From Escherichia coli (lineage in GTDB: Bacteria > Pseudomonadota > Gammaproteobacteria > Enterobacterales > Enterobacteriaceae): a stretch of 64,000 bases of DNA. The number at the start of each line of letters is the position of its first letter. The first letter of the stretch is position 1. Below are positions 58,413 to 59,749 of this stretch, piece by piece. The stretch lies in the NCBI RefSeq assembly GCF_965641715.1, contig NZ_OZ282453.1, one strand, 5' to 3'. The notes under the pieces were generated by a model, which was given only the letters and a program-made list of their open reading frames with translations, was not told the DNA's origin and did no database searches. Made by a program: the position numbers and the translations under genes.

Positions 58413-58967
58413 TTACAAACCAACACGCGCTTTCATCCAGCCATAGACAAAGGACTCGTTAGCCTCACGTTTCTCTGCCAGCGCCAGATAACGCTCCCCC
58501 TGTGTACAGTTCAGTGCTGTCAGCATCACCAGTTCGCCATCTTTACCGCGTTTTTCCAGGAATACACGTAGTGCGTTAATGGTTCGTGGGCCGATACACC
58601 CGTCTGTATCCATGTCCGGATACAGCATCCCCTTCTGGTTAAATACATTCAGCCAGCGCTGAAGCATCTTTGCCGCAACTGCCGGCCCCATGTTCACACC
58701 CGTGTCGCAAAGCTCTGCGGCAATGTCCGCAGACAGGTTTGCCACCTTGTCGAAATTCGGTCCGTACCAGTAGTCTGCCTCCAGAATTTCCAGCGCCTGC
58801 CCGCGGCTCAAATCACGCATATCGCCACGGTACCCATGTGACCGCGCCACTTTTTCAGTTATGCCCCACTTCGTTGCACCACCTGTATCGTCAGGGTGAC
58901 TGACGTAGCCCCCCTCTTTTCCCAGGATTTCATCAAAAACTTCATCTCTCGATTTCATATCAGCCAC
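58413..58967 (-). CDS. putative endolysin (GH108-like muramidase with C-terminal peptidoglycan-binding domain)
   Basis: N-terminal EGGYVSHPDDTGGATKWGIT motif typical of the GH108 family; last gene of an overlapping three-gene cassette. Confidence 0.55.
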   Translation of the reverse strand: MADMKSRDEVFDEILGKEGGYVSHPDDTGGATKWGITEKVARSHGYRGDMRDLSRGQALEILEADYWYGPNFDKVANLSADIAAELCDTGVNMGPAVAAKMLQRWLNVFNQKGMLYPDMDTDGCIGPRTINALRVFLEKRGKDGELVMLTALNCTQGERYLALAEKREANESFVYGWMKARVGL

Positions 58968-59247
58968 TCAGTAAGGCAAAAATTTTTGAAACATTACCGC
59001 GCGCACGAACAACCAGCACGCAGAACACCAGATTAATCATGACGACCAGCCAGTTACCGGGAAGGATTGTGCCGCAGAGAAAGGCAAGTGGCGGAAGTGC
59101 ATATACCGTCATCAGCAGCCAGGCCAGCAATGACACCAGCGGCTTATGTCTGGAATCACGACGACGATAAAAAAATAGCGTTGGCACGATAAACGAGCAC
59201 AACGCTACATTCAGCAATCCGGGAAGATTATTTGCCATTACCACCAC
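58960..59247 (-). CDS. small lysis-cassette membrane protein (holin/antiholin-like)
   Basis: 95 aa, 2-3 hydrophobic helices, start overlaps upstream gene stop and stop overlaps endolysin start. Confidence 0.4.
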   Translation of the reverse strand: MVVMANNLPGLLNVALCSFIVPTLFFYRRRDSRHKPLVSLLAWLLMTVYALPPLAFLCGTILPGNWLVVMINLVFCVLVVRARGNVSKIFALLSG

Positions 59248-59749
59248 CTCCCCGTTGACGGGAGAACAGACCGGATACCAGCGATGTAATATCCTGCTGA
59301 TGGATGAATGACAGGACCTTTACTGAAACCACCGACACCAGTACTGCACACAACGCATCAACGGAAGCGCTGTCAAACCCAATACGCTCCGCCATATACC
59401 CCGCCACACCACGGGCCCCAAGAACACCAACAATAAAGGACACCAAGAAATGTGCAGCCACACGCCAGGCTGAAAGCGTCTGCGGCATTGTTGCCACAAA
59501 CAGCGCACCGGCAAAGGCACCAAACACAATCCCGAAATCCGTTCCGGTGAACAGCCCGAATACCGTCGCCCCGCCGAGCGCCGCGGCCGTACCGGAACCG
59601 GACAAGGGTTCAGACATACCTTTTTTCTCCTGTAAATAAAAAAGAGCCACCAGCGGCCCACCAAAAAACACCCCGTCAAAGACACCTGCACCCACAGATG
59701 CCTTTTGTGTGGTGTTATTCAGATTTGCGCAGTAAAGGCCAGAGAACAA
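59228..59749 (-). CDS. putative holin-like membrane protein (probable internal start near MSEPLSG)
   Basis: Gly/Ala-rich TM segments, first gene of the lysis cassette. Confidence 0.4.
   Translation of the reverse strand: MFSGLYCANLNNTTQKASVGAGVFDGVFFGGPLVALFYLQEKKGMSEPLSGSGTAAALGGATVFGLFTGTDFGIVFGAFAGALFVATMPQTLSAWRVAAHFLVSFIVGVLGARGVAGYMAERIGFDSASVDALCAVLVSVVSVKVLSFIHQQDITSLVSGLFSRQRGGGGNGK

Follow-up and report, generated by a model that had tools for sequence, protein, structure and literature searches.

A lysis cassette of the phiP27/LT-II prophage type, probably deprived of its third step by a cargo segment, in a lambda-like prophage of Escherichia coli

The lysis genes discussed here belong to a lambda-like prophage contained in a 64,000-nucleotide stretch of Escherichia coli DNA (NCBI RefSeq assembly GCF_965641715.1, contig NZ_OZ282453.1; hereafter the window, numbered from its first letter). 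Three consecutive genes on the minus strand, between positions 58413 and 59617, encode two putative holins and a soluble endolysin, while spanins are absent from the window and not hidden in it. This region is probably a lysis cassette of the type known from phiP27 and the LT-II prophages in which the third step is missing, its slot between the endolysin gene and cos having been overwritten by cargo. As a type the cassette is known, and RefSeq already annotates it accordingly; the variant feature is a YnaI-like channel gene that stands in place of the third-step module.

The family assignments of the three genes lie far beyond chance. The first gene (59228..59617) encodes a 129-aa protein that covers the whole Phage_holin_8 profile (PF16931; E = 1.3e-21, 77.5 bits against a Pfam cut-off of 26.4, profile positions 1-121 of 121) and matches phrog_198, 'holin', at 1.7e-40. 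The second (58960..59238) encodes a 92-aa Phage_holin_3_7 protein (PF05449; E = 6.2e-20, 71.5 bits against a cut-off of 25.4), which matches phrog_217, also 'holin', at 4.5e-32. The third (58413..58958) specifies a muramidase of 181 aa with a complete Glyco_hydro_108 domain (GH108; E = 1.1e-24, 87.1 bits against a cut-off of 21.2, profile positions 1-85 of 85) and a PG_binding_3 domain in its C-terminal part (E = 6.5e-24, 84.4 bits against a cut-off of 24.6), and is labelled endolysin in PHROGs; in NCBIfam its match to 'holin-associated N-acetylmuramidase' stays below threshold (72 bits, the cut-off being 240). According to hydropathy analysis, the Phage_holin_8 protein, whose gene adjoins the other genes of the endolysin-holin operon, has three to four hydrophobic segments, and the Phage_holin_3_7 protein has three (residues 5-23, 37-55 and 58-76) followed by a basic C-terminus. 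An earlier note, made from the sequence letters and a list of open reading frames (ORFs), had proposed at this place two membrane proteins followed by a GH108-like muramidase with a peptidoglycan-binding domain; Pfam and PHROGs agree with it, and the profile searches for which it had called place its 173-aa and 95-aa ORFs in holin families and not in families foreign to lysis.

The lengths given in that note (173, 95 and 184 aa) are those of maximal ORFs, the one of the Phage_holin_8 gene reaching 59749. Likely starts were set from the Shine-Dalgarno context together with the RefSeq annotation of a copy that is 99.7-100% identical. On this basis the Phage_holin_8 gene starts at the ATG at 59617, which has AGGAG in front of it, and the Phage_holin_3_7 gene starts at the ATG at 59238, overlapping the stop of its predecessor by 11 nt. 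The likely start of the endolysin gene is the ATG at 58958, 1 nt past the Phage_holin_3_7 stop. The description of three overlapping genes consequently holds for the first two, whereas the second and the third are separated by a 1-nt gap. Beyond the endolysin stop, at a distance of 12 nt, lies a terminator-like hairpin on the same strand (58372..58401), identified by consensus match only, with an 8-bp stem including five GC pairs and then a T-run, ATTTTTTG; this stretch is common to strain Ceylon31 down to 58376.

The endolysin aligns from end to end with two structurally characterized Salmonella muramidases, Sen1395 (PDB 6V3Z; 84.3% identity, 1.7e-104) and TtsA (PDB 6V40; 64.0% identity, 3.7e-79), with which it shares the two-domain layout. 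Both the catalytic glutamate of the EGGY motif (E15, equivalent to TtsA Glu14) and the threonine equivalent to TtsA Thr28 (T29) are conserved, while the third triad position, Asp19 in TtsA, is occupied by Ser in the window endolysin and by Asn in the active Sen1395. Purified Sen1395 cleaves peptidoglycan, whereas the role of TtsA is toxin secretion and not phage release, and Sen1395 is unable to substitute for TtsA in toxin export (PMC6996933). Four groove positions are said to set the substrate specificity of the two enzymes. Here the window endolysin is mixed: residues 117, 121, 165 and 167 are D, C, E and N, against D, R, E and D in Sen1395 and I, Q, Q and N in TtsA, which makes two residues Sen1395-like, one TtsA-like and one a unique Cys. 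The identity of 84% to Sen1395 suggests that the window protein is an active muramidase. No hydrophobic window was found across its 181 aa, nor an N-terminal signal peptide, transmembrane domain or signal-anchor-release sequence, and the N-terminus (MKSRDEVFDE) is charged, so that the enzyme would need a holin to reach the cell wall. The idea of a membrane-active tail was discarded, the C-terminus not being cationic.

Every known spanin system requires an outer-membrane lipoprotein, and by the criterion of Kongari et al. 2018 the lack of a lipoprotein ORF in any frame rules out both outer-membrane (o-) spanins and unimolecular (u-) spanins (PMC6139136). Following the logic of the same study (PMC6139136), every start codon in all six frames was scanned for a signal peptide and a lipobox. 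The scan returned no credible candidate between 55.5 and 61.6 kb, and in the rest of the window only implausible matches, antisense or inside genes; those at 30086-30187, 48151-48426, 50858-51016, 44956-45063 and 15269-15382 were rejected, being located within host or structural genes or antisense to them and having no start signals. The late strand of the near-identical copy in ETEC1730, which could be followed as far as the Q gene, was equally devoid of lipoprotein candidates. As a positive control, the identical scan recovered Rz1-like, P27-type and Bor lipoproteins in relatives.

Homology searches point in the same direction. When the window was searched by tblastn, only noise was obtained with lambda S, R, Rz, Rz1 and Bor, as well as with the Rz/Rz1 proteins (loci L020 and L068), the lipoprotein and the small transmembrane proteins of the relatives; the P27-type lipoprotein finds its best match across the window at E = 0.086, within a holin gene, so this module is not present. 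ORFs of inner-membrane (i-) spanin type, i.e., type II proteins with an N-terminal transmembrane domain and a helical periplasmic domain, were not found on the late strand from TerB to Nu1, and with no credible lipobox ORF in the window there is no u-spanin of the T1 gp11 type either. Nor did we find a conserved small ORF with a start signal that could be a disruptin-type gene, a class devoid of a reliable sequence signature.

Particular attention was paid to the AT-rich gap of 517 bp between the endolysin and channel genes, where the earlier note had seen no spanin-sized ORF and had suggested, together with the 3' region of the endolysin gene, to look for embedded Rz1-type ORFs. The scan of all frames confirms the former and, with regard to the latter, found none. 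No ORF in the gap has a signal peptide, a lipobox or a transmembrane segment, and no spanin PHROG was matched by the leftover small ORFs of the gap, of the endolysin and holin genes or of other intergenic stretches. The gap ORFs at 57941-58081, 58092-58196 and 58331-58426 were rejected on account of their TTG or GTG starts, the lack of signal sequence or transmembrane domain and the lack of any family match, the last one additionally spanning the terminator-like hairpin. The ORFs embedded in the endolysin and holin genes at 58526-58648 and 58859-58945 were also rejected, as was the ORF at 59320-59691, which starts MQVSLTGC, has no n-/h-region before the Cys, shows an out-of-frame composition and has no PHROG match. 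The earlier note had left the choice between spanins too small for its ORF list and spanins that are absent; absence is what holds in the window, and 'too small' is true only of the relatives, in which a lipoprotein gene of 51-60 aa is found.

The cause of this absence can be traced by comparison with the closest relative, PEC41. From 58424 on to the right the two sequences share 99.4% identity, and from 56401 on to the left 97.4%; between these points they are unrelated, a pattern that bears out the notion of a mosaic lysis module. The interval so delimited is a cargo segment of 2,022 bp (56402..58423) with a GC content of 0.31-0.39, compared with about 0.52 in its flanks. Its right junction falls within the last endolysin codons, at the very point where the C-terminal residues of the relatives diverge, and its left junction lies about 30 bp before the cosN-equivalent (56359..56370, minus strand), which ends the slot. 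The first gene past the slot encodes a Nu1-type small terminase subunit (55636..56181, minus strand; phrog_57, 7.4e-77) and aligns to the start of lambda nu1. The junction positions indicate that the interval corresponds to the Rz/Rz1-bor region of lambda. Among 5,426 complete E. coli genomes the cargo segment is present in five, all of them porcine enterotoxigenic E. coli (ETEC) or PEC strains, and always in this slot.

The only gene of the cargo segment (56888..57895, minus strand) encodes a channel of 335 aa in which the three MscS-channel domains (PF21088, PF00924 and PF21082, i.e., MS_channel_1st, 2nd and 3rd) all score above the Pfam cut-offs, and the earlier assignment of this downstream gene as MscS-like was correct. 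The protein is about 55% identical to clusters including one named YnaI, and the gene about 71% identical in nucleotides to chromosomal ynaI. With E. coli YnaI (343 aa) it shares the domain set, a similar length and four to five N-terminal hydrophobic segments; it differs in being prophage-borne, in its GC content of about 33% and in representing a distinct paralogue beside the chromosomal ynaI. It has no PHROG family. On metagenome contigs L089-L091, a GH108/PG_binding_3 gene split in two is followed, about 750 bp further downstream, by a YnaI-like gene of 89% identity. The linkage of endolysin and channel thus predates the lineage of the window and also occurs with a broken endolysin. A further homologue (P0004, 67% identical) is surrounded by ordinary chromosomal genes. 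Taken together, we infer that the channel gene is cargo, a so-called moron, and a lysis role for it is unsupported.

What fills the same slot elsewhere was surveyed in the 80 best IMG/VR loci encoding a close endolysin relative, which are not independent lineages, so that the following counts tell what is possible and not how frequent it is. A P27-type mini-lipoprotein, usually placed after one or two tiny membrane proteins, occupies the slot in 63 loci, and classical Rz/Rz1-like genes in six. Three further loci carry LT-II toxin genes and two the same channel gene, in both cases with no lipoprotein; the last six have neither lipoprotein, Rz, toxin nor channel, and three of them carry bor. The Rz/Rz1-like genes match the PHROG 'Rz-like spanin' and Pfam LysC, and in one locus (L020) the Rz start falls on the endolysin stop codon. 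In PEC41 the slot measures about 1.07 kb and holds a 57-aa membrane protein and a small P27-type lipoprotein gene. The latter (L004 4692-4925) is frameshifted inside the lipobox, a sign of module decay in this lineage or an assembly error. Since relatives keep a lipoprotein or Rz/Rz1 in the same slot, the absence of a spanin from the window looks secondary, and the most fitting explanation is that the MscS-carrying cargo displaced the module, not that the cassette type lacks it. As regards the cassette itself, at least 80% of the three genes is covered in 113 of the 5,426 complete genomes (about 2%), and some part of it in 556.

The mini-lipoprotein that follows the endolysin in the relatives is conserved (phrog_7528, no Pfam family). 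It is made as a precursor of 51-60 aa with the lipobox LVGC (L-[VAS]-G-C) and has a mature part of 30 aa with two further conserved Cys residues. Examples are found in locus L088 (2974-3156 and 3158-3331), in L016 downstream of the endolysin, and in phiP27 (L006, 3938-4093). The gene, which the annotation pipeline PGAP leaves unannotated, is usually preceded by one or two genes for tiny membrane proteins anchored at their C-termini (phrog_4493/1115 and phrog_4906), while in several relatives it follows the endolysin directly with no membrane-protein partner. Homology to colicin lysis proteins was considered and rejected, no Pfam match being found at E <= 1. Kongari et al. 2018 described the phiP27 spanin pair as the shortest of their set, with 62 periplasmic residues in all (PMC6139136), and their o-spanin of phiP27, a bioinformatic call only, is the mini-lipoprotein of the relatives (PMC6139136). 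Its 64-aa i-spanin partner in that study is encoded from a TTG start, antisense to a 90-aa ORF that is itself well formed; it looks spurious, and its status is doubtful. The unannotated mini-lipoprotein of most relatives is a candidate 'shortest spanin' that deserves experiment.

The kinship with phiP27 is clear from the holin gene pair. Genes L28 and L29 of phiP27 correspond to the two membrane-protein genes, also in their order, and the pair occurs together with a GH108 gene in Rac-SA53, SerU-LTIIb and many E. coli prophages; in phiP27, Rac-SA53 and SerU-LTIIb, the pair, its order and its short overlap are those of the window, with 77-81% nucleotide identity. The position between a methylase/tRNA region and the packaging genes is also common to phiP27, the LT-II prophages and the window. 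In contrast, the endolysin of phiP27 (L30) is an unrelated protein of 127 aa, and phiP27 keeps the small lipoprotein. The LT-II phages are closer in this respect, sharing with the window the GH108 endolysin, a cargo gene directly past it and the lack of a lipoprotein, although their cargo consists of toxin genes and that of the window of a mechanosensitive-channel gene.

Compared with lambda S-R-Rz/Rz1, the place in the late operon just upstream of cos and nu1 is the same, and so is the underlying scheme, in which a soluble endolysin comes after a holin. None of S, R, Rz, Rz1 or Bor has a similar counterpart, two membrane proteins stand against one dual-start holin, the muramidase is of another fold family and there is no spanin. 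With the spanin-less phages listed by Kongari et al. 2018 in their Table 10, the window shares zero lipoprotein ORFs in any frame (PMC6139136). It differs from them, and from phiKT with its 'disruptin' gp28, in that its lack can be traced to a recent replacement, close relatives keeping the module in the slot; a gp28-like candidate was not identified in the window.

From these data the following course of events can be proposed. Once the prophage is induced, both membrane proteins and the muramidase would be made from Q-dependent late transcripts. The former, Phage_holin_8 and then Phage_holin_3_7, translationally linked, would permeabilise the inner membrane, as their families suggest, and the holes would release the soluble, signal-less GH108 muramidase to cut the peptidoglycan. 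A third step would not follow, for neither an i-/o-spanin pair nor a u-spanin nor any other lipoprotein is encoded, the DNA from the endolysin stop to cos having apparently been overwritten by a foreign low-GC segment. Lysis should then stop at the outer membrane, with release depending on shear or turgor or on the spanins of co-resident prophages, or failing. Infections with Rz/Rz1 mutants of lambda leave fragile spherical cells, unless lysis is completed by shear or by low levels of divalent cations. The channel would in this scheme serve as cargo of the lysogen and not as a lysis factor.

Several points weigh against this interpretation. Both membrane proteins are putative holins, a name they owe to family label and gene context, and a literature search found no experimental paper on Phage_holin_8 or Phage_holin_3_7. 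The window ends short of the Q gene, so that a spanin elsewhere in the prophage is excluded only through the ETEC1730 copy, and judging from sequence there may be a factor that acts on the outer membrane and has no lipobox, for instance a disruptin-like peptide. The non-independence of the surveyed loci must be added, as well as the fact that the o-spanin of phiP27 is a bioinformatic call with a partner that looks spurious, which implies that the lost module may not be an outer-membrane disruptor at all. Finally, the five copies of the cargo in complete genomes sit in degraded prophages, and the arrangement may be a product of decay and not a working design.

This last point leads to a tenable, if clearly less probable, explanation, which overlaps the one we prefer: the prophage would be cryptic or decaying, the cassette a relic, and the loss of the third step one more lesion. 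In all five complete genomes with the cargo, genes for the terminase, portal, head-decoration and tail-fibre proteins are truncated; the frameshifted lipoprotein gene of PEC41 and the broken GH108 gene beside the 89%-identical channel gene fit the same picture. On the other hand, the three lysis genes of the window are full length with respect to their profiles, and the ORFs of the lambda-like late genes, Nu1 to J, are of the expected size, so the copy studied here is not visibly degraded in its visible part.

It is unlikely, albeit conceivable, that the cassette lacking its third step may still lyse the cell and release virions, the outer membrane being breached by an unrecognised factor (the DUF3927 protein encoded next to the holins, or either holin) or with no dedicated protein; linked to this is the idea that the 30-residue lipoprotein of the relatives may be a new small outer-membrane disruptor and not a spanin. 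In a more specific form, to which we give little credit, an unrecognised disruptor would reside in or near the cassette, as the DUF3927 protein, the larger Phage_holin_8 protein or a short cationic peptide like phiKT gp28, and the phage would be functionally complete with no spanin. About 13% of the genomes in the study of Kongari et al. yielded no spanin, and another route was inferred there for those with no lipoprotein in any frame (PMC6139136), phiKT employs a cationic peptide, relatives show a tight linkage of DUF3927 to the cassette, and two 'holins' are one above the minimum needed. Against it, relatives with DUF3927 and both holins still have Rz/Rz1 or the mini-lipoprotein, which argues that the third-step module is not redundant there; besides, PHROGs files DUF3927 as a moron-type TciB-like protein, and no small ORF on the late strand combines a ribosome-binding site with cationic amphipathic character or has any PHROG match.

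A co-option of the cassette for the non-lytic export of proteins, along the holin/muramidase 'type 10' secretion route known for TtsA and typhoid toxin, is very improbable. The 64% identity of the endolysin to TtsA and the LT-II toxin genes directly past the same endolysin in related prophages might suggest it. Nevertheless, its closer relative by far is Sen1395, an enzyme unable to stand in for TtsA, and the groove of the window endolysin holds two Sen1395-like positions against one TtsA-like; moreover, no secreted cargo is adjacent, the neighbour being an integral membrane channel, and the cassette stands in a full late operon beside cos. As for the YnaI-like channel replacing the missing module as part of the lysis programme, by way of turgor or the timing of holin triggering, its place directly downstream of the endolysin on the same strand, where it would be Q-antiterminated and transcribed late, and the recurrence of this linkage at 89% identity in another lineage hardly make it credible, given that the channel is an inner-membrane protein and the inner membrane is already breached once the holin fires, that osmolyte release would lower the turgor on which spanin-less lysis depends, that the terminator-like hairpin and the AT-rich gap separate the two genes, that the 67%-identical homologue lies among ordinary chromosomal genes and many named matches are proteins of enterobacterial genomes, and that no PHROG family includes it.

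The displacement of the third-step module by cargo is thus the reading we retain, and it makes the window an ordinary mosaic variant with a simple cause, cargo replacement in a hypervariable endolysin-to-cos slot, so that its main use is to tidy annotation. Still, it offers a natural test case, lambda-like in other respects, of whether E. coli prophages can do without spanins, and the LT-II toxin phages share the gap. The endolysin-to-cos slot would be fillable at the cost of the outer-membrane step, which may limit the release of virions or toxin from such prophages.

With regard to the setting of the cassette, the late operon runs in the order methylase, two tRNAs, TerB, DUF3927, holin, holin, endolysin and cos, followed by lambda-like packaging, head and tail genes. 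The stretch from cos to nu1 is about 90% identical to lambda (column identity over lambda bases 1-200), while the 12-base cohesive-end sequence differs, being GGGCGTCAGGCG in the window and GGGCGGCGACCT in lambda. Directly upstream of the holins, the DUF3927 gene (59715..59867, minus strand; Pfam DUF3927, 1.6e-15; phrog_1470, 2.5e-24) encodes a TciB-like small membrane protein of 50 aa with two hydrophobic segments by hydropathy, and co-occurs with the cassette in relatives. A 92-nt 'tRNA-Arg' that ARAGORN places inside this ORF (59767-59858, minus strand) is not found by Rfam and is probably a false positive. Next to it lies a TerB-family gene of 141 aa (59864..60289, minus strand; Pfam TerB, 1.7e-06; phrog_632, 'tellurite resistance', 7e-63), which is annotated in relatives. 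Both genes (59715-60289, minus strand) travel with the cassette in many prophages, and the TerB-family gene is a conserved upstream neighbour with no feature that marks it as a lysis gene. A reading of the channel, TerB, DUF3927 and holin genes as a defence system was rejected, PADLOC returning no match for any of them.

Between the tRNA pair and TerB extends a stretch of about 1.07 kb (60290-61358) with no annotated gene, credible ORF or Rfam match, in which a terminator-like hairpin is found at 60471-60488. The stx2e genes of phiP27 occupy a place immediately promoter-distal to the tRNA pair and ahead of the holins, and the pertussis-like toxin genes of Rac-SA53 are also found upstream of the holins; given toxin genes at the matching place in these two phages, the stretch may be an empty cargo slot. 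The Rfam scan of 55-64 kb recovered only the two tRNAs, one of which (61438-61513) is Met (CAT) according to ARAGORN and tRNA-Ile according to RefSeq.

Between the host gene prfC (29649-31262) and the side tail fibre gene of the prophage (34327-36729), the plus strand carries a gene for a 544-aa fusion of a reverse transcriptase and a TIR domain (32043-33677; Pfam RVT_1 and TIR_2), which PADLOC assigns to RT-TIR_XII at 2.5e-187 and which looks like a type XII retron-like defence gene.

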